Source: Eledone cirrhosa
Lineage: Eukaryota
Direction of reading: 5' to 3'
NCBI GenBank assembly: GCA_964016885.1
Contig: OZ024740.1
Location: 256,308,001 to 256,372,000, forward strand
Length of the DNA: 64,000 nt
In this document: one piece after another, positions 3,976 to 64,000 of the stretch
Position numbering within the stretch: the first letter of the stretch is position 1
How the letters are laid out: each line of letters opens with the position of its first letter
Notes under the pieces: generated by a model
Database searches by the model: none
What the model was told of the DNA's origin: nothing
Seen by the model: only the letters and a program-made list of their open reading frames with translations
Made by a program: the position numbers and the translations under genes

Positions 3976-4265
3976 AACCAGTAAGACCCCGACAGCTGAG
4001 CTCAAGCCGTTTCGACGGCTAATTCTGGACTAAATGAAAATTTATCCTGGTATTTAAATAGCCGATCTTCTCAAGGAATTACCCCTTGAGAAGATCGGCT
4101 ATTTAAATACCAGGATAAATTTTCATTTAGTCCAGAATTAACCGTCGAAACGGCTTGAGCTCAGCTGTCGGGGTCTTACTGGTTCCTATTACCCACTCTA
4201 CTACCTCAAGTATTGAGTACTTTGGTGCGTTATGGTCCACCTGGTTCCTTACCACATTTCCTTCG

Positions 4266-20098: not shown

Positions 20099-22077
20099 TT
20101 GTGCCCAAAATTTAAACTTCCTCACAAATTAACACCTCACACCGACACCACCATTGTCAATATTACTACGTTTGCCAACACTACAAAAAATATAAGCAGT
20201 AGCAATATTTTAAATTTGTCTCAGGCAGACATTCATTTCCCGCCATTACCAATGACTGCAGGTGTTAAAGCCTCCACCACCACCACCACCACCGCGACAA
20301 CCACCACCCCCACCACCACCGCGATAACAGAAACAAAAGGAAAAAATAAATCAACTCGTGATGTCGAAATAATTTCAACCAAGATGGACTCTTCCACTTC
20401 CACACCGAAAACCACTGACGTCACCACCACCACAACTGAAACTAAAATTAATAACAAAAATAACGATAGCAACAACAACAACAATGACATAAAAAAAACC
20501 ACCCTGAGTTTTGCCAGAGTAGCAAAACAGTTCGAAGCATTTACGGTAACTCAGGAGGATTTAGAAAATGCCAAACAAATGGTAAAGAAAGATGGGTACA
20601 GGGTCAGCCTCACCTTCCCCCACCTAATAAAATGGAGCATCGGCGCCTATGCACCGTGTCGTATCGAACAATAAATGTAAAATCACGCCGAGTGGAACGG
20701 GCATCCGAGTCCCAAATCCAAAAAGCTTTGGGACATGTGTGGGCAATAAAAACCCACACCAGACGTGGGCAAAAGTATGGAACCGTGGACGTGTTCTTTG
20801 AAAAACCAGAGGAGGCTAGAGAACACTCCATGGCCCCGTTAAGAAGTGACGACTTCACACTCGTCCCAAGCTATTGTGGCCAGAGACTCGTAAAGATCAG
20901 GGTGACCCACGTTCCACCGGCCATCGAAATTCCCTGGCTAATAGCGGCCGTCCTCGCCGGCATCGAAGCCAACACCAAGATAATCGAAATAGCAAAAGAA
21001 AAGCAGGAGAACTGGTCCGGATCTGGGATGGAGCTCCTGATCCAAGCAGACCAAAAAAGCATTGAGGAGATCCCAGAGGTAATAGACCTCACTGACGGCA
21101 GCCACCTCATCGTAATTGTCGAGGGCAGAAGGCCTAGGTGTGTCGTTTGTGGTGAAGGAACCCACCTAAGGGCTTTCTGCCCTCAGGCTAAAAGGTTGAG
21201 GCCACCTCTCCTACCCACCCCAGTGACACAACCATCAACACCACCAGTAGCAGATATGGCAGCAACAACTGTAGCAGCAACAACAGAAGCAACCATAACA
21301 GCAACAACCCCAGCATCAGTAGCAAAAACAACACCACCACCACCAGCAAAAGCAACACCACCACCACCCAACGCTTCAGAACTAGCACCAGCGCCTACAC
21401 CATCCACCACGCCACAACCAAAACTAACGCCTGTGGAGGATTTTCCACTCCCCGGCCTATCACAACTGGAGACAGATTGTGAAGACGAGGAGTGGGAAAC
21501 GGTATCAGGAAAAAAAAAAAGAAATCAAAAAAGAAAAAATTCTCTTCCTTCCCCTTCCAAAAACAAAATACAGAGGGAAACAAATAAATTAACAAACAAA
21601 AAAGTTAGGACAGATATGCCACCATCCACACCAGCATCACCAACCCCATCAACCCAAACACCAACACCATCACCATCATTAACCCCAACACCACCATCAC
21701 CTACACCACAAAAGTCACCAAAATGCGAAACAGAAACAAACCCACAACAAACGCAAACAAAACAAAACAACCAAAACGATACACACTACACAGCATTAAC
21801 TTTGAACAACAAGCAATTATTACACTACATCCAACACAACACCAGCATCACAGAAAAAGACTACACAACAACCCCAAAATTCACACCACCTCCACACATA
21901 CAAATCACTCGCATCACACAGAAAACGTACATGACACTAAAACAAAAATTCCCCAAAGACATCGGAGACTTCCGACAAGCACTCTCCAGGAGGATTTATA
22001 AGGACATCCTTCCTGAGGAGGCCACAAGAAGTGAAAAGGATGGAAAAACCGTCCTTCCCCTACGAAAAGTAAGGTAA
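20099..22077 (+). pseudogene. LINE ORF1 (gag-like, CCHC zinc knuckle, Thr/Pro-rich), one frameshift near 20620
   Basis: CVVCGEGTHLRAFC = CX2CX4HX4C. ORFs 20099-20674 and 20632-22077 join to match ORF1 of the other copies. The start codon is uncertain. Confidence 0.8.
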
Positions 22078-22110
22078 GTGGTCTTTCCATCTTTTCCACT
22101 CCTTTTCAAC

Positions 22111-25100
22111 ATGACCTCACTCAGAATAGGCAGCATAAATGCGCGTGGCTTGGGGTCGTCATGGAAGCAGGCCACCTGCTTTACGACCTCAGGTCACTAA
22201 ACATAGATGTAGTGGCCATCAGCGAGACCAGAATCTCCGAAGCACGGGCCTTCGCACCGATCTAAGGCGGCTACGATGTGTACGCATCTCCCAGCCGTCC
22301 GGGATCGGGGGGAGGACTTGCTGTGCTTTTTCGGAGAGGTTTGGATCTTGCCATACGGGCCATCTTCCTGGACCCAGAAGGTAAGTTGGTGGTGCTGGAC
22401 GTGACCAGCGGAGAAGGGCAAGCTTTCAGGTTAGTGGCCGTCTATGCCCCGACAGGAGCAGGGCGGCCTGATTTCTTCCGGCGTCTTGAGACCTTTTTTG
22501 GAACGTCCCGCTCTTTAGTGTTAGTGGGCGACTGGAACGGGATCTTAGATGCACGCTGGAGTTGTGTGGGATTAGCGGATAGGGGAGGAGGGTGCAAGAG
22601 TCTCACCAACCTGCTCGGGCGTTTTGAACTGTCTGACAGGTACCGATTGGATTTCCCGAATGTGCCAATGTGGACTTGGACAAATCGCATAGGGTCATCC
22701 AGATCATATCTGGATAGAGTATTTTGTAGAGAAATAGATAGGTCTAGCATAGGCTGTCCACAATTCAAGATAGTCAGCTACACGGACCACAAATTCGTGA
22801 TCTGTGTGCTTCACTTAGATAGGCTTCATAGACGAGGACCCGGCTACTGGAAGCTAAACGCGTCCTTACCAGCGCGCAAGGCCTACAGAGACCGGATTAG
22901 CGAACTAGTTAAGCGGGCGTTGACGGGGGCCATCGTCAACAACAAGTGGTGGTTTACTCTGAAAAGAGCAATTAGAATAGAGTCCATTAGGTTTAGTAAG
23001 GCTTTAGCAATAGAGAAAAATAGAGCAGAGGGAGAATTAGTTAAAAAATTAGACGAGGCGCTTAGCAAAGGCATCGCGACCGACGTACTTGCGGCGAAAT
23101 TGGCCCTTGACCAATTCTTCAATGCAAAGCACGAAGGCTGCGTTGTCAGAGCTAGGGTGCGTGCTCTCCGACACGAGGGGACGAAAGCCGTTCAATGGGC
23201 CCGAGTGGCGGAGGCGCGTCGAGACAATAAAGCCACGATCCGGTCTTTGGTGGACCACGACGGGCGCATGCTACTCGATCCCGGGCAAAAGTGTGAAGCT
23301 TTTCAGCGACACTTCGCTCAACTGTTCGGGGGCAGTGGTGGGCCGGATCGAGGGATGGACTTTAGTGTCTACCTCGACGGACTGCCGCGGCTTTCGGCCA
23401 CTGAGGCGGAGTGCGAAAAGCCGATAACAACCGCTGAAGTACGGGAGGCAATGACTGGCTGCACAAGGGGTAAATCGCGTGGTTTGGATGGTCTGCCCTA
23501 TGAACTTTACGTACAAATGCCAGACTTGTTCGGAGGCCTCTTGGCGGACGTCTACTGCAACTGGCAACAGAACGGGAGAATTCACAGCTCTGTGAGACGA
23601 GGAGCGGTGGTGCTGCTGAGAAAGGATCCGAACAAGGGGGATAACATAGATAATTTTAGGCCCATAACTCTGCTAAACACAGTGTTCAAGATTTTGGCCA
23701 AGGTGCAAGCAAAGAGGTTGGCGATTGTCGTTGGTGATCTGGTAGGAGAGACGCAGACATGCGCCATTCCCGACAGATCCATCCACGACATCCTCCACCT
23801 CATGCGATACATCGTAGAGAGGGTAGCTAGGGAACCTGGCACGGGTGGATCTTTGATCAATTTAGATCAGTCGAAAGCCTTCGATAGGGTCGACCATAGT
23901 TACCTAGCGACAGTCCTGAGGGCGGCTGGCTTTGGGCCCGTCTTCAGAGGCTGGATCGCTGCCATGCACAGCGACATCTGCTCTGTTGTGAGAGTGAACG
24001 GTCACCTTTCGGAACCGTTCAACATCATGCGCTCGGTCCGCCAAGGATGTCCCCTCTCGTCCCTCTTGTACGTATTGACTCTCGAGCCATTACTGCACAA
24101 ACTGGAGACGTTGAGGGGCGTCCCGCGCGAACTAGGATGCGGAAGATCCGTGTCAGCATATGCGGACGATGTCACCGTAGTGGTGTCGAACGCCAAACAC
24201 ATCGAGGCGATCGGCACTACACTAAGAGAATACGAAGCGGTGACAGGAGCAATGATCAACCAGGAAAAGTCAGTGGGCCTGCAGCTCGGCACCTGGAGAG
24301 GCAGGTCCATGCCGTCCAACAGCATCGTCGGACGCTGGACGGACGGACCGGTTAAATTGCTAGGGGTCTGGTTCGGTCCGGACCTCCAGACGGACAAAAA
24401 CTGGGACGAGGTGACGAGCAGGGTGGCTTCTCTCACCCAGAAATGGGCGGAGTGGAAGCTATCCCTGAAAGGTCGAGCGGAGGTGGCTAACGCGTATATC
24501 GCCTCTGTCATCTGCTACCGCCTGTCCGTCGTACCTTGTCCTAAGCCTCGCCTGACTGCGCTGGAGCGTTTGCTCTTTCGCTTTTTGTGGAAGGGACGTG
24601 CTCCGATGGTCAGGCGGTCCATCTGTTGTCAACACCTGCTACGTGGAGGGCTGGGCATGCCGTGGCTGATGATGCGCAGGCACGCGCTCAGGCTACGACA
24701 TCTCCACCTCTTCCTCGACGGTGATCAGGTGTGGTCGCCGTTTGCTAGACGCGTATTTCCCCAGCTCGTTTCCTTGACGGAGCTGCAGTCCTGGGTCAAG
24801 CGAAGACCGAGAGGGAGCGCCTGGAGACTGGAATGTCTTCAGGCGCTCACAGCCCTCGACCAATCGGGCAATGTGATCGGTGGAAACTCCACCTCGGCGT
24901 TCTATAGAGGATTAGTGGAGGGGAAGAGCGACGACGTACTTGGGGAAACTCTAGGCGTCGACGAAAATCAACTAGCCAATCTCTTCGGAAGAACTTTCGG
25001 GCCGGGGCCTATGGACAACTTCCAGAAATCTCTGGCCTGGCAGTGCTACCGAGGAGCCTTGCCAGTTCGGGATAAACTCTACAGGCATGGAGGTGCCGTC

Positions 25101-25526
25101 AGCCGGGCATGTTCGAGATGCGCGCAGGGCGACGAAACTGTCCTGCACGCACTCGTCCAGTGTCCGAAAATTGCTGACTTGTGGGTTTATGTCGAACACC
25201 TGCTGTCGCGTTTAGGACGGATCCGGCTATCATCTGAGTCCATCGTGAGGATTGCCCCGCCCTCCTCCTTTAGCCGGGAAGGGCAGGCAGTTTTTATCTG
25301 TCTGGTGGCCATGGCGAAAGAGATAGTATGGTGGACACGTTTGAAAGGGCTGAAGACGAGCACTTACCTCTTCGGTGATGCTCTGATTGACTTTTTCAAA
25401 TTTCATTTGAAAAGGAAAATCAGAGTAGAGAGGGAAGTGCTCTCTTCCCAGCATTTTGTTGAGAGATGGGTGAGAGAAGCAAGAATGGCCCGAGTGAATG
25501 GGCCTACTCTGAGCATATATCTGTAA
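22111..25526 (+). CDS. LINE ORF2: APE endonuclease - reverse transcriptase - C-terminal zinc finger (open 22278-25526; frameshift ~22170 and TAA ~22263 in the N-terminus)
   Basis: MTSLRIGSINARG, VGDWN, YLDR, TDH, GPGYWKLN, GLDGLPYE, NFRPITLLN, LDQSKAFDRV, VRQGCPLS, YADD, GGLG, CSRC...HALVQC. Confidence 0.93.
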
Positions 25527-34395: not shown

Positions 34396-34470
<75 letters not shown>

Positions 34471-34475
<5 letters not shown>

Positions 34476-35534
34476 TATAGACATAGAATATTCGAAAATA
34501 TTCTGTATGTTTATAATAAACATTTTGAAGACCTAATCGCTATAGAATAGAATACGTCACGTATTACAATTAGATTCTCGATAAAAGCAAGGGAAGTAAT
34601 CTACGCGTTTCATTCTCGTTAGAAATCATCAGGACTACATATCCAGTGCTTTTATCGAGAATGACACAGCTAGAGACTTATAGAATACTTAGCTGTGTAC
34701 AGGAACTGGTTTGAAAGAGCGGTTGCCGGTCCGGCAGAAATTAGAAATTGGAATAAATGCTCTGAAATAGCGATATATATGTGAATATAGACATAGAATA
34801 TTCGAAAATATTCTGTATGTTTATAATAAACATTTTGAAGACCTAATCGCTATAGAATAGAATACGTCACGTATTACAATTAGATTCTCGATAAAAGCAA
34901 GGGAAGTAATCTACGCGTTTCATTCTCGTTAGAAATCATCAGGACTACATATCCAGTGCTTTTATCGAGAATGACACAGCTAGAGACTTATAGAATACTT
35001 AGCTGTGTACAGGAACTGGTTTGAAAGAGCGGTTGCCGGTCCGGCAGAAATTAGAAATTGGAATAAATGCTCTGAAATAGCGATATATATGTGAATATAG
35101 ACATAGAATATTCGAAAATATTCTGTATGTTTATAATAAACATTTTGAAGACCTAATCGCTATAGAATAGAATACGTCACGTATTACAATTAGATTCTCG
35201 ATAAAAGCAAGGGAAGTAATCTACGCGTTTCATTCTCGTTAGAAATCATCAGGACTACATATCCAGTGCTTTTATCGAGAATGACACAGCTAGAGACTTA
35301 TAGAATACTTAGCTGTGTACAGGAACTGGTTTGAAAGAGCGGTTGCCGGTCCGGCAGAAATTAGAAATTGGAATAAATGCTCTGAAATAGCGATATATAT
35401 GTGAATATAGACATAGAATATTCGAAAATATTCTGTATGTTTATAATAAACATTTTGAAGACCTAATCGCTATAGAATAGAATACGTCACGTATTACAAT
35501 TAGATTCTCGATAAAAGCAAGGGAAGTAATCTAC
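34471..35534 (-). repeat. 310-bp retrozyme-like tandem array, left arm (~3.4 units; HHRs at 34596-34638, 34906-34948, 35216-35258)
   Basis: tgaatatagacatag recurs at 34472, 34782, 35092 and 35402. Exact reverse complement of the right-arm unit. Confidence 0.95.
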
Positions 35535-35536
35535 CC

Positions 35537-38500
35537 CCCTTGCTTTTATCGAGAATCTAATTGTAATACGTGACGTATTCTATTCTATAGCGATTAGGTC
35601 TTCAAAATGTTTATTATAAACATACAGAATATTTTCGAATATTCTATGTCTATATTCACATATATATCGCTATTTCAGAGCATTTATTCCAATTTCTAAT
35701 TTCTGCCGGACCGGCAACCGCTCTTTCAAACCAGTTCCTGTACACAGCTAAGTATTCTATAAGTCTCTAGCTGTGTCATTCTCGATAAAAGCACTGGATA
35801 TGTAGTCCTGATGATTTCTAACGAGAATGAAACGCGTAGATTACTTCCCTTGCTTTTATCGAGAATCTAATTGTAATACGTGACGTATTCTATTCTATAG
35901 CGATTAGGTCTTCAAAATGTTTATTATAAACATACAGAATATTTTCGAATATTCTATGTCTATATTCACATATATATCGCTATTTCAGAGCATTTATTCC
36001 AATTTCTAATTTCTGCCGGACCGGCAACCGCTCTTTCAAACCAGTTCCTGTACACAGCTAAGTATTCTATAAGTCTCTAGCTGTGTCATTCTCGATAAAA
36101 GCACTGGATATGTAGTCCTGATGATTTCTAACGAGAATGAAACGCGTAGATTACTTCCCTTGCTTTTATCGAGAATCTAATTGTAATACGTGACGTATTC
36201 TATTCTATAGCGATTAGGTCTTCAAAATGTTTATTATAAACATACAGAATATTTTCGAATATTCTATGTCTATATTCACATATATATCGCTATTTCAGAG
36301 CATTTATTCCAATTTCTAATTTCTGCCGGACCGGCAACCGCTCTTTCAAACCAGTTCCTGTACACAGCTAAGTATTCTATAAGTCTCTAGCTGTGTCATT
36401 CTCGATAAAAGCACTGGATATGTAGTCCTGATGATTTCTAACGAGAATGAAACGCGTAGATTACTTCCCTTGCTTTTATCGAGAATCTAATTGTAATACG
36501 TGACGTATTCTATTCTATAGCGATTAGGTCTTCAAAATGTTTATTATAAACATACAGAATATTTTCGAATATTCTATGTCTATATTCACATATATATCGC
36601 TATTTCAGAGCATTTATTCCAATTTCTAATTTCTGCCGGACCGGCAACCGCTCTTTCAAACCAGTTCCTGTACACAGCTAAGTATTCTATAAGTCTCTAG
36701 CTGTGTCATTCTCGATAAAAGCACTGGATATGTAGTCCTGATGATTTCTAACGAGAATGAAACGCGTAGATTACTTCCCTTGCTTTTATCGAGAATCTAA
36801 TTGTAATACGTGACGTATTCTATTCTATAGCGATTAGGTCTTCAAAATGTTTATTATAAACATACAGAATATTTTCGAATATTCTATGTCTATATTCACA
36901 TATATATCGCTATTTCAGAGCATTTATTCCAATTTCTAATTTCTGCCGGACCGGCAACCGCTCTTTCAAACCAGTTCCTGTACACAGCTAAGTATTCTAT
37001 AAGTCTCTAGCTGTGTCATTCTCGATAAAAGCACTGGATATGTAGTCCTGATGATTTCTAACGAGAATGAAACGCGTAGATTACTTCCCTTGCTTTTATC
37101 GAGAATCTAATTGTAATACGTGACGTATTCTATTCTATAGCGATTAGGTCTTCAAAATGTTTATTATAAACATACAGAATATTTTCGAATATTCTATGTC
37201 TATATTCACATATATATCGCTATTTCAGAGCATTTATTCCAATTTCTAATTTCTGCCGGACCGGCAACCGCTCTTTCAAACCAGTTCCTGTACACAGCTA
37301 AGTATTCTATAAGTCTCTAGCTGTGTCATTCTCGATAAAAGCACTGGATATGTAGTCCTGATGATTTCTAACGAGAATGAAACGCGTAGATTACTTCCCT
37401 TGCTTTTATCGAGAATCTAATTGTAATACGTGACGTATTCTATTCTATAGCGATTAGGTCTTCAAAATGTTTATTATAAACATACAGAATATTTTCGAAT
37501 ATTCTATGTCTATATTCACATATATATCGCTATTTCAGAGCATTTATTCCAATTTCTAATTTCTGCCGGACCGGCAACCGCTCTTTCAAACCAGTTCCTG
37601 TACACAGCTAAGTATTCTATAAGTCTCTAGCTGTGTCATTCTCGATAAAAGCACTGGATATGTAGTCCTGATGATTTCTAACGAGAATGAAACGCGTAGA
37701 TTACTTCCCTTGCTTTTATCGAGAATCTAATTGTAATACGTGACGTATTCTATTCTATAGCGATTAGGTCTTCAAAATGTTTATTATAAACATACAGAAT
37801 ATTTTCGAATATTCTATGTCTATATTCACATATATATCGCTATTTCAGAGCATTTATTCCAATTTCTAATTTCTGCCGGACCGGCAACCGCTCTTTCAAA
37901 CCAGTTCCTGTACACAGCTAAGTATTCTATAAGTCTCTAGCTGTGTCATTCTCGATAAAAGCACTGGATATGTAGTCCTGATGATTTCTAACGAGAATGA
38001 AACGCGTAGATTACTTCCCTTGCTTTTATCGAGAATCTAATTGTAATACGTGACGTATTCTATTCTATAGCGATTAGGTCTTCAAAATGTTTATTATAAA
38101 CATACAGAATATTTTCGAATATTCTATGTCTATATTCACATATATATCGCTATTTCAGAGCATTTATTCCAATTTCTAATTTCTGCCGGACCGGCAACCG
38201 CTCTTTCAAACCAGTTCCTGTACACAGCTAAGTATTCTATAAGTCTCTAGCTGTGTCATTCTCGATAAAAGCACTGGATATGTAGTCCTGATGATTTCTA
38301 ACGAGAATGAAACGCGTAGATTACTTCCCTTGCTTTTATCGAGAATCTAATTGTAATACGTGACGTATTCTATTCTATAGCGATTAGGTCTTCAAAATGT
38401 TTATTATAAACATACAGAATATTTTCGAATATTCTATGTCTATATTCACATATATATCGCTATTTCAGAGCATTTATTCCAATTTCTAATTTCTGCCGGA

Positions 38501-40027
38501 CCGGCAACCGCTCTTTCAAACCAGTTCCTGTACACAGCTAAGTATTCTATAAGTCTCTAGCTGTGTCATTCTCGATAAAAGCACTGGATATGTAGTCCTG
38601 ATGATTTCTAACGAGAATGAAACGCGTAGATTACTTCCCTTGCTTTTATCGAGAATCTAATTGTAATACGTGACGTATTCTATTCTATAGCGATTAGGTC
38701 TTCAAAATGTTTATTATAAACATACAGAATATTTTCGAATATTCTATGTCTATATTCACATATATATCGCTATTTCAGAGCATTTATTCCAATTTCTAAT
38801 TTCTGCCGGACCGGCAACCGCTCTTTCAAACCAGTTCCTGTACACAGCTAAGTATTCTATAAGTCTCTAGCTGTGTCATTCTCGATAAAAGCACTGGATA
38901 TGTAGTCCTGATGATTTCTAACGAGAATGAAACGCGTAGATTACTTCCCTTGCTTTTATCGAGAATCTAATTGTAATACGTGACGTATTCTATTCTATAG
39001 CGATTAGGTCTTCAAAATGTTTATTATAAACATACAGAATATTTTCGAATATTCTATGTCTATATTCACATATATATCGCTATTTAAGAGCATTTATTCC
39101 AATTTCTAATTTCTGCCGGACCGGCAACCGCTCTTTCAAACCAGTTCCTGTACACAGCTAAGTATTCTATAAGTCTCTAGCTGTGTCATTCTCGATAAAA
39201 GCACTGGATATGTAGTCCTGATGATTTCTAACGAGAATGAAACGCGTAGATTACTTTCCTTGCTTTTATCGAGAATCTAATTGTAATACGTGACGTATTC
39301 TATTCTATAGCGATTAGGTCTTCAAAATGTTTATTATAAACATACAGAATATTTTCGAATATTCTATGTCTATATTCACATATATATCGCTATTTCAGAG
39401 CATTTATTCCAATTTCTAATTTCTGCCGGACCGGCAACCGCTCTTTCAAACCAGTTCCTGTACACAGCTAAGTATTCTATAAGTCTCTAGCTGTGTCATT
39501 CTCGATAAAAGCACTGGATATGTAGTCCTGATGATTTCTAACGAGAATGAAACGCGTAGATTACTTCCCTTGCTTTTATCGAGAATCTAATTGTAATACG
39601 TGACGTATTCTATTCTATAGCGATTAGGTCTTCAAAATGTTTATTATAAACATACAGAATATTTTCGAATATTCTATGTCTATATTCACATATATATCGC
39701 TATTTCAGAGCATTTATTCCAATTTCTAATTTCTGCCGGACCGGCAACCGCTCTTTCAAACCAGTTCCTGTACACAGCTAAGTATTCTATAAGTCTCTAG
39801 CTGTGTCATTCTCGATAAAAGCACTGGATATGTAGTCCTGATGATTTCTAACGATAATGAAACGCGTAGATTACTTCCCTTGCTTTTATCGAGAATCTAA
39901 TTGTAATACGTGACGTATTCTATTCTATAGCGATTAGGTCTTCAAAATGTTTATTATAAACATACAGAATATTTTCGAATATTCTATGTCTATATTCACA
40001 TATATATCGCTATTTCAGAGCATTTAT

Positions 40028-40033
<6 letters not shown>
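35537..40033 (+). repeat. 310-bp retrozyme-like tandem array, right arm (~14.5 units; 14 HHRs at 35802+310k, k=0-13)
   Basis: Period is exactly 310. I saw only 3 substitutions (39086, 39257, 39855). Confidence 0.95.
35802..35844 (+). ncRNA. Type I hammerhead ribozyme (representative copy in the array)
   Basis: GTAGTC-CTGATGA-T-TTCT-aacg-AGAA-T-GAAA-CGCG-TA-GATTAC, predicted cut after 35838. Stem I continues past an internal loop with 16 perfect pairs (35778-35793 / 35851-35866). Confidence 0.9.
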
Positions 40034-42374: not shown

Positions 42375-42622
42375 GTAAAAATAAAAATAAAAATAAAAAT
42401 AAAAATAAAAATAAAAATAAAAATAAAAATAAAAATAAAAATAAAAATAAAAATAAAAATAAAAATAAAAATAAAAATAAAAATAAAAATAAAAATAAAA
42501 ATAAAAATAAAAATAAAAATAAAAATAAAAATAAAAATAAAATTAAAAATAAAAATAAAAAATAAAAATAAAAATAAAAATAAAAATAAAAATAAAAATA
42601 AAAATAAAAATAAAAATAAAAA
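42375..42622. repeat. (TAAAAA)n hexanucleotide repeat
   Basis: Direct reading of the sequence. Confidence 0.95.
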
Positions 42623-42725
42623 TGAAATTAATAATAAGGTTAAAAATTAAAGTAAATCAGAAAAGGTAGTCTTAAAGAGAATAATAAGAGCTTATGGAGG
42701 ATAAGTATCTGAAAGTGTGTTAAGT

Positions 42726-48129: not shown

Positions 48130-48620
48130 GCTGGTTGTAATGTAGAGATTGGTAGTGGTGGTGATGTGATGCTGGTTGTAGTGTAGAGATGGTAGTGCTT
48201 GTTGTTGTGGCGGTGGTGTGATATTGGTTGTAGTGACAAGATGGTAATGGTGGTGGTGGTGGTGGTTGTGGCGTGATGCTGGTTGTAGTGTAGAGATGGT
48301 AGTGCTTGTTGTTGTGGCGGTGGTGTGATATTGGTTGTAGTGACAAGATGGTAATGGTGGTGGTGGTGGTGGTGGTGGCGTGATGCTGGTTGTAGTGTAG
48401 AGATGGTAGTGCTTGTTGTTGTGGCGGTGGTGTGATATTGGTTGTAGTGACAAGATGGTAATGGTGGTGGTGGTGGTGGTTGTGGCGTGATGCTGGTTGT
48501 AGTGTAGAGATGGTAGTGCTTGTTGTTGTGGCGGTGGTGTGATATTGGTTGTAGTGACAAGATGGTAATGTTGGTGGTGGTGGTGGTTGTGGTGTGATGC
48601 TGGTTTTAGTGTAGAGATGA
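48130..48620. repeat. 107-bp G/T-rich minisatellite (~4.5 copies), followed by mixed trinucleotide tracts to ~49030
   Basis: gtgatattggttgtagtgacaagatggtaatg recurs every 107 bp. Confidence 0.9.
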
Positions 48621-48877
48621 TAGTGGTGGTGGTGGTGGTGTGTAGTTTGTTGTAAAGATGGTGTGATGCCGGTTGTAGTAATTTTAATAGTTTTGGTGCT
48701 GTTAATGATGGTGGTGGCCATGCTGGTTGTTACTATTATTATTACCACCACAACCAATGCTATAACCACCACAAACATCATCATCACTACTAACACCGTA
48801 ACCACTGCGACTACTACCACAACCACTACTATCATCACCATTTCTACTACCGCCATCGGCGTTGCTGCTGCTGCTGT

Positions 48878-62782: not shown

Positions 62783-62785
<3 letters not shown>

Positions 62786-62972
62786 CGAGTAGGACCCCGA
62801 CGGCTGAGCTCAAGCAGTTTCGACGGCTAATTCTGGACATAAAATTAGCCGTCGAAACGGCTTGAGCTCAGCCGTCGGGGTCCTACTCGTTCCTATTACC
62901 CACTCTACTACCCTAAGTATTGAGTACTTTGGTGCGTTATGGTCCATCTGGTTCTTTACCACATTTCCATCG

Positions 62973-62975
<3 letters not shown>
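62783..62975 (+). mobile_element. Copy of the 3971 element with a shorter fold-back (62783-62892), lacking the UUGAGAA box
   Basis: Near-identical to 4136-4268. Confidence 0.85.
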
Positions 62976-63065
<90 letters not shown>

Positions 63066-63101
63066 TGGTTACACAACAGTTAGTTCACCATACCGTGATA
63101 T

Positions 63102-63430
63102 TATATTTGATAATATACTGTATATTTATTTTAAAACACTTTGAAGACCATTCGCTATGAGTTTTAAAGTAGTGAATATGTCACTTACTTAGTTTAGGCA
63201 AAAACAACGGGAACCGACAGCTGTTTCTCGCTCGTTAACGGTTATCAAGATTGCATATCCCTTCGCTTCTGTCGAGACTTACAGAAGCTGGATTCTTATA
63301 GAATTCCAGTAATGTTTAAGAGCTGATTAAGCAGAGCAGTTGCCGGTCCAGCAAAATTATGAATTAGTATCAGTACTATGAAATAACGATGTATGAATGA
63401 AATGTATGTATAGTATATTTGATAATATAC
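63102..63430 (-). mobile_element. Diverged 312-bp monomer of the 310-bp array family; HHR at 63212-63252
   Basis: Shared blocks aaaca.tttgaagacc..tcgctat, catatcc, cttatagaat, gagc.gttgccggtcc.gca and tgaaata.cgat. Terminal redundancy atatttgataatatac at 63103 and 63415. Confidence 0.8.
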
Positions 63431-63432
63431 GT

Positions 63433-64000
63433 TGTGATCGGTGGAAACTCCAGCTTCCAGCTTGGGTTTGTGCAGGGGAAGAGCGACGACGTCCTTGGGG
63501 AGACTCTGGGTGTCGAGGAAGATCAACTAGCCATTCTTTTCGGGAGAACTTTCGGACCAGGGCCCATGGACAACTTTCAGAAATCCCTGGCCTGGCAGTG
63601 CTACCGGTGAGCGTTGTCAGTTCGGGATGAACTCTACAGGCATGGAAGTCCCACCCGCCTAGGCTGTCCGAGATGCGCGCAGGGCAACGAAACCGCCCTG
63701 CACGCATTCGTCCAGTGTCCGAGCATTGCTGACTTGTGCTTTATGTCGAACATCTGCTGTCACGTGTAGGACGGATCCGGCTATCAGCTGAGTCCATCAT
63801 GAGGATTGCCCCGCTGTCTTCCTTTAGCCAGGAAGGTCAGGCAGTTTTTATCTGTCTGGTGGCCATGGCGAAAGAGATAGTATGGTGGACACGTTTGAAA
63901 GGGCTGAAGACGAGCACTTACCTCTTCGGTGATGCCCTGATTAACTTTTCAAATTTCATTTGAAAAGGAAAATAAGGGTGGAGAGGGAAGTGCTCTTTTC
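63433..64000 (+). mobile_element. 5'-truncated Tx1/L1 ORF2 C-terminal fragment, runs off the window
   Basis: GKSDDVLGETLGV...FGPGPMDNFQKSLAWQCYR matches 24873-25446. Confidence 0.9.

Follow-up and report, generated by a model that had tools for sequence, protein, structure and literature searches.

Paired end sites in the arrays of a hammerhead retrozyme family point to probable Penelope-like insertion in Eledone cirrhosa

In the 64,000-nucleotide stretch of Eledone cirrhosa DNA that we analysed (the window), a 312-bp unit near one edge is, with high probability, a decayed copy from a lineage with a U3-A8 core pair. This lineage belongs to the same retrozyme family as a tandem array in the window, and the family likely spread as self-cleaved circular RNA that was likely copied into (TA)n by a Penelope-like reverse transcriptase-endonuclease. 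The main interest lies in the family's insertion rule and not in the monomer. On balance we favour, with less assurance, a model in which each array is one insertion by a dimeric Penelope enzyme that would prime both strands at mutually exclusive sites, A and B, on one circular RNA and travel up to about fifteen turns, so that arrays would record double-primed rolling-circle reverse transcription. The model treats the A-B segment as a cis signal that would have persisted through 24% divergence and the change from C3-G8 to U3-A8, and it includes a U3-A8 lineage that standard hammerhead descriptors would have missed. Such a strict end rule makes the question testable, with a 310-nt circle as template, two start sites predicted to the nucleotide, and (TA)n as target.

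The window copy (63098..63430, minus strand) spans 1.07 units, a 312-bp period plus 21 bp, with a terminal redundancy of 21 bp (20/21 identical). It is collinear over its whole length with the array unit of 310 bp (BLAST E 3.6e-37). In local alignment 239 of 316 aligned bases are identical (76%), and the score of 228 compares with no more than 52 in any of 200 dinucleotide shuffles. We rejected the redundancy as an LTR or target duplication, as the insert is 1.07 units and the 5′ breaks of sister copies differ. Units of the family measure 310-316 bp, are non-coding, contain all type I hammerhead core bases, and lie in DNA with a GC content of about 0.34-0.37 in the window around them. The family has no LTR and no protein, and its ends are breakpoints within a circularly permutable unit; by sequence it classifies as a non-LTR retrozyme with a type I hammerhead. 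At the monomer and array loci we found neither an ORF of at least 250 aa nor an autonomous Penelope-like ORF (RT plus GIY-YIG).

The predicted type I hammerhead of the window copy lies at 63209..63254 on the minus strand, with core, stems, and cut site drawn from the sequence. It consists of the stem I 5′ strand (63249-63254), core U3 to A9 (63242-63248), stem II (63229-63240), GAAA (63224-63227), and an 8-nt stem III palindrome (63217-63224), and the predicted cut falls between 63216 and 63215. Stem II pairs as C-G, G-C, U-G, and U-A. A long stem that extends stem I, with its 5′ arm at 63264..63277 and 3′ arm at 63193..63206 (both minus strand), covaries between lineages. An Rfam scan of the whole window returned 0 matches at gathering thresholds, so the hammerhead identification rests on the core consensus and on covariation. 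Hammerheads with U3-A8 keep activity in the mutagenesis literature. As a natural variant of the core, U3-A8 has been reported for the Penelope hammerheads of Schistosoma (PMC4209133).

These results bear out much of the original prediction, which described a terminally redundant 312-bp unit collinear with the array unit and carrying a minus-strand hammerhead with U3-A8, a paired stem II, and a stem III palindrome. Its statement that loop AACG is kept applies to the window copy but not as a family trait, since loop II varies across the family and AACA is commoner. Its description of the family as old and dispersed, and not a local satellite, is upheld for dispersal and for the existence of successive lineages, with age read relative to the array lineage.

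Homologues gathered from the 3.0-Gb genome place the U3-A8 lineage throughout it. Searching with the window copy gave 104 matches from the best 40 of 2811 candidates, the full-length ones 85-91% identical. Because both U3 and A8 occur in 30/30 aligned copies, U3-A8 is a lineage trait. A relaxed pattern that retrieves mainly U3-A8 subfamilies matched 183 times, with 0 matches for reversed-pattern controls; the first 100 of these fall into several subfamilies that differ in stem II and stem III sequences, a few of them having C3-G8 or a mismatched 3-8 pair. For the C3-G8 lineage of the array, we counted 4033 exact array-type 43-mers and 14,208 matches to a relaxed C3-G8 pattern (reversed-pattern controls, 0), and array units are near identical both within loci and between distant loci. 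From these sequence data, the C3-G8 lineage appears much larger and younger than the U3-A8 lineage. The family comprises tandem and dispersed copies, and the U3-A8 lineage was seen solely as arms of <2 units.

Helix changes between the lineages are compensatory far beyond a random-substitution null. Comparison of the array with the U3-A8 majority covered 24 pairs (stem I, 3-8, stem II, and the 13-bp stem continuing stem I), of which 12 differ, one by a gap. All 11 ungapped changed pairs still pair, 7 having changed on both sides. When 19 substitutions were placed at random, all pairs stayed intact in 0, 1, and 6 of 200,000 trials under three transition biases; the long stem had been chosen from folds of the same sequences, a choice that favours covariation. 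Across 49 hammerhead regions, which leave out 3 damaged-core copies, 8 duplicate loci, and the unrelated locus L066, 92.5% of cells pair and 11/15 pairs have two-sided changes (0/500 shuffles as high; slid-partner controls at most 4), although the sequences are related, so that counts of covarying cells overstate independent events, and were in part gathered by core pattern, so that the shuffle figure should not be read as a probability. The compensatory changes are located in stems I and II, the 3-8 core pair, and the long flanking stem, which lies outside the ribozyme core and does not figure in the original prediction. Among singleton changes within the family, 16/24 break pairing, and among shared changes 3/6 are unpaired C-A states, typical of CpG decay. 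The proposal that covariation reflects selection on RNA structure is supported between lineages, but not for the window monomer itself.

The young C3-G8 array in the window has two arms in opposite orientation. The left arm (34463..35534, minus strand) holds 3.5 units and its outer end is at site A in (TA)n, while the right arm (35537..40033, plus strand) holds 14.5 units and ends at site B in (TA)n. We compared it with 10 arrays from elsewhere in the genome. In 10 of these 11, a minus arm is followed by a plus arm, such that both outer ends are RNA 3′ ends, and 10/10 two-armed arrays, lying in sequence of (TA)n type, pair an end at site A (about 25-39 in the unit) with an end at site B (63-70). 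The pairing was predicted beforehand for further arrays of other variants, and all eight two-armed ones obeyed it (chance at most 0.5^8); three single-arm loci gathered with them are uninformative on the rule. In total, 18/18 two-armed arrays have A/B ends, the two sites being about 30 nt apart in the unit, and lie mostly in (TA)n. The inverted junctions fall at varied positions, with 1-16 nt of overlap in 14/18 arrays; of the other four, three contain filler and one is joined bluntly. The two arms carry the same unit variant in 11/11 comparable arrays, including a variant with 4 differences. One array, L204, is in a non-TA site and has one clear 15-bp target duplication; elsewhere duplications are unreadable because the flanks are microsatellite. 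This array and a separate one, L199, have the same inversion junction, which has a 16-nt overlap and falls inside the long stem beside the ribozyme. One array unit in the window (35629-35960) also appears, 100% identical, as a single closed 340-nt contig in each of two sequencing runs of unrecorded type, where trace host DNA and a free circle would look alike.

The U3-A8 lineage uses homologous sites. Among 50 loci we found 21 two-armed insertions, comprising 16 A/B, 1 A/A, 1 B/B, and 3 unclassifiable, so that exceptions number 2/18 classifiable insertions. In none of the 50 loci does a U3-A8 arm reach two full units, whereas C3-G8 arms extend up to 14.5. The short U3-A8 arms need an extra assumption, either later array collapse or shorter synthesis.

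Since the arms cross the predicted cleavage site many times, the template was presumably circular or multimeric. In the mechanism we propose, multimeric transcripts would self-cleave as a double hammerhead via the palindromic stem III, and the cleaved units would be ligated into circles. A dimeric Penelope protein would then nick both target strands, with one cDNA starting at A and the other at B; each would run round the circular RNA one to fifteen times before the two were joined by microhomology. The end rule also sharpens the picture of Penelope mobilisation, since the choice of one end of an insertion is tied to that of the other. The combination of A/B ends with an inverted junction matches the Penelope signature of a tail plus an inversion, and arrays are therefore likely to be single rolling-circle insertions and not the product of satellite expansion.

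We think it very unlikely that a satellite grew at the DNA level from single Penelope ends, by unequal crossover or circular-DNA reinsertion, with the monomer as a stray unit. That history would account for near-identical units in tandem and resembles the DNA-level amplification proposed for vertebrate retrozymes (10.64898/2026.07.22.740005), and slippage or collapse after insertion may still change copy number. However, it does not predict that 18/19 multi-unit arrays examined have fixed complementary ends and one inversion, with variable junctions, nor that distant loci are near identical, and it leaves the compensatory RNA helices unexplained.

Rolling-circle insertion by a Penelope enzyme draws on known properties of these elements. 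Hallmarks of Penelope insertions are a 5′ copy in inverted orientation and, at one end, a tail of 30-40 bp (10.1101/2021.04.23.441226, PMC3846280), and some clades target (TA)n (Craig et al., 10.1101/2021.04.23.441226; PMC3846280). One Penelope protein, predicted to be dimeric, cuts and extends both strands, and its reverse transcriptase initiates at two neighbouring positions inside the RNA, which delimit the tail (PMC11167929). Both U3-A8 and C3-G8 insertions show an inverted 5′ copy, a tail at one end, and an AT-rich target. By analogy, the segment between sites A (unit about 25-41) and B (about 62-74) would be the equivalent of the Penelope tail; in the window copy it is internal, at 63366..63405 (minus strand, limits approximate). 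A point against strict A/B pairing is that in vitro the anole Penelope protein showed no start-site difference between the two strands (PMC11167929).

Long/short end pairing also occurs in Penelope-like elements of the same genome, in 10/11 pairs of a GIY-YIG-coding family and 15/18 pairs of a second Penelope-type element, one pair of which joins two separate insertions. A LINE or other non-Penelope reverse transcriptase might instead have spread the RNA, with the inversions arising from twin priming, which is known for L1. LINEs are abundant, one adjoins the window copy, and none of 8 terminal regions compared revealed a Penelope partner that shares sequence. We nevertheless give this explanation slightly less weight than satellite growth, because the family lacks its own poly(A) or simple-repeat tail, because a pair of fixed internal end sites spaced by about 30 nt has been described as a feature of Penelope-like elements alone (PMC11167929), and because paired end sites recur in the GIY-YIG family.

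The genome contains 10,596 GIY-YIG candidates, and our partner screen covered a small sample of them, 8 terminal regions plus the downstream sequence of 37 GIY-YIG loci. None of the 8 terminal regions aligned convincingly with the retrozyme (scores 37-72 versus shuffle maxima of 35-60). The best resemblance is centred on the ribozyme (66-70% over about 95 nt) and is to an element that we could not link to an ORF. The element seen at L105, L108, L112, L121-L155, and about 50319 in the window, which has 7717 exact 31-mer matches, combines a long stem III with a hammerhead core and stem II that are nearly those of the array; its two ends lie about 70 nt from each other. Neither five long loci nor the downstream screen tied an ORF to it. 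On sequence resemblance, this element is the best candidate relative of the array lineage. An intact-looking Penelope-like element (L101:2773-8815, minus strand) encodes a 937-aa ORF with RT and GIY-YIG and ends in (TA)n. Its direct repeats (1071 bp, 97.8% alike) each contain a U3-A8 hammerhead, outside which we found no similarity to the retrozyme. At L113:8568-9562, three hammerheads spaced about 500 bp apart lie downstream of a Penelope ORF and may mark a terminal repeat that is becoming a tandem retrozyme-like unit. Hammerhead matches of another Penelope-type family are present in the window at about 44379 and 49699 (minus strand).

The retrozyme class is already known. Like other animal non-LTR retrozymes (PMC7229834; 10.64898/2026.07.22.740005), this family, described here from genome sequence, has low-GC non-coding units of about 300 bp with one type I hammerhead, occurs from monomers to multimers, includes several related families per genome, and co-occurs with Penelope-like elements. 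It differs in that a whole lineage uses U3-A8 and that its two-armed arrays combine an inversion with fixed complementary ends, on which the consulted text of those sources is silent. Both sources pose as open which enzyme moves animal retrozymes and whether arrays originate by enzyme or by satellite growth. The second argues for a Penelope origin from co-occurrence and sequence, and for arrays by local amplification; its main text makes no mention of tails, junctions, or target sites. Our literature search found no report of two-ended array architecture in retrozymes, a point on which subscription literature and supplements could bear.

Endonuclease-positive Penelope-like elements (Craig et al. 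2021; PMC3846280; PMC11167929) share with the family the inverted 5′ copy, a one-end tail of 30-40 nt, (TA)n or AT-rich targets, a hammerhead with palindromic stem III, and U3-A8 cores in their repeats (PMC4209133; locus L101 here). In contrast to them, the retrozyme lacks an ORF and has many-unit arms where they have partial tandems, and the small sample of resident Penelope terminal repeats compared gave no convincing homology to it beyond the ribozyme. Newt satellite 2 and related hammerhead satellites likewise have tandem units, of about 330 bp, and a weak palindromic stem III, with dimers cleaving better (PMC7229834), but the arrays described here are many small dispersed insertions with defined ends. 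Dimer-dependent cleavage through a palindromic stem III is described in PMC4209133 and PMC7229834.

The window copy is best read as a neutral relic, an ordinary decayed copy. The period of the U3-A8 family is 316 bp; the 312-bp period and 4-bp stem I of the window copy result from a private 4-nt deletion in the stem I 3′ strand, found in full form in 0/29 other aligned copies. Seven of 24 helix pairs are broken or gapped, including 3 breaks among the 13 counted long-stem pairs, and both normal family ends are missing. Folding of the ribozyme region gives a z of -1.3, compared with -8.2 for the natural copy L003 and -5.0 for the array. The copy is 6.3% from the family majority, against a median of 5.2% for U3-A8 copies picked by likeness to it. 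No contig from the sequencing runs was found to bridge the monomer junctions. The structural and sequence evidence suggests that inserted copies decay neutrally, with selection acting on the replicating RNA, and the window copy is therefore probably inactive. Its compensatory changes were inherited from the lineage and its private changes break structure, so the idea that this monomer displays selection or would make a good assay variant is not supported. That it is a working ribozyme kept by selection at its locus is the least credible of the alternatives: the core and stems II and III remain intact, and stem I could still form with 4 bp, but the stem I deletion and long-stem breaks, a fold no better than shuffles, and above-median divergence argue otherwise, as does its single copy, since hammerheads with a short palindromic stem III act mainly as dimers (PMC4209133).

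On its 3′ side, the window copy is fused to the last 35 nt, the short end, of the GIY-YIG-coding Penelope-like family (63063..63097, minus strand; 4095 exact 31-mer matches), followed by a (TA)45 microsatellite (62974..63063), the usual target type of the retrozyme family. Because the 31-mer of this stub has so many exact copies while the retrozyme is 6% diverged, we consider the stub probably a later insertion. The same contrast in divergence disfavours a template switch from stub to retrozyme in one event, although a stub of about 33-35 nt is too short to settle the matter. A further stub, at 62783-62973 with related matches near 3990-4170, is an inverted Penelope-type sequence between two (TA)n tracts that contains the 3′ half of a hammerhead and has unequal ends.

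The 5′ break of the window copy meets, head to head, a 5′-truncated LINE (63433..64000, plus strand) that is 86% identical to the RT/zf-RVT element at 22266-25526. We found no remaining retrozyme sequence past this LINE within 8.4 kb beyond the window. The LINE at 20488-25526 (plus strand), also present at L166:4133-7944, has two ORFs, one of 529 aa and one of 1086 aa that encodes endonuclease-RT-zf-RVT. Just outside the window there is a copy with 96.8% identity, and the region from 9 to 31 kb is filled with many older copies. The window also contains a (TAAAAA)n tract at 42376-42656 and, at 48150-48625, a 107-bp minisatellite that falls within a minus-strand open frame of 350 aa.
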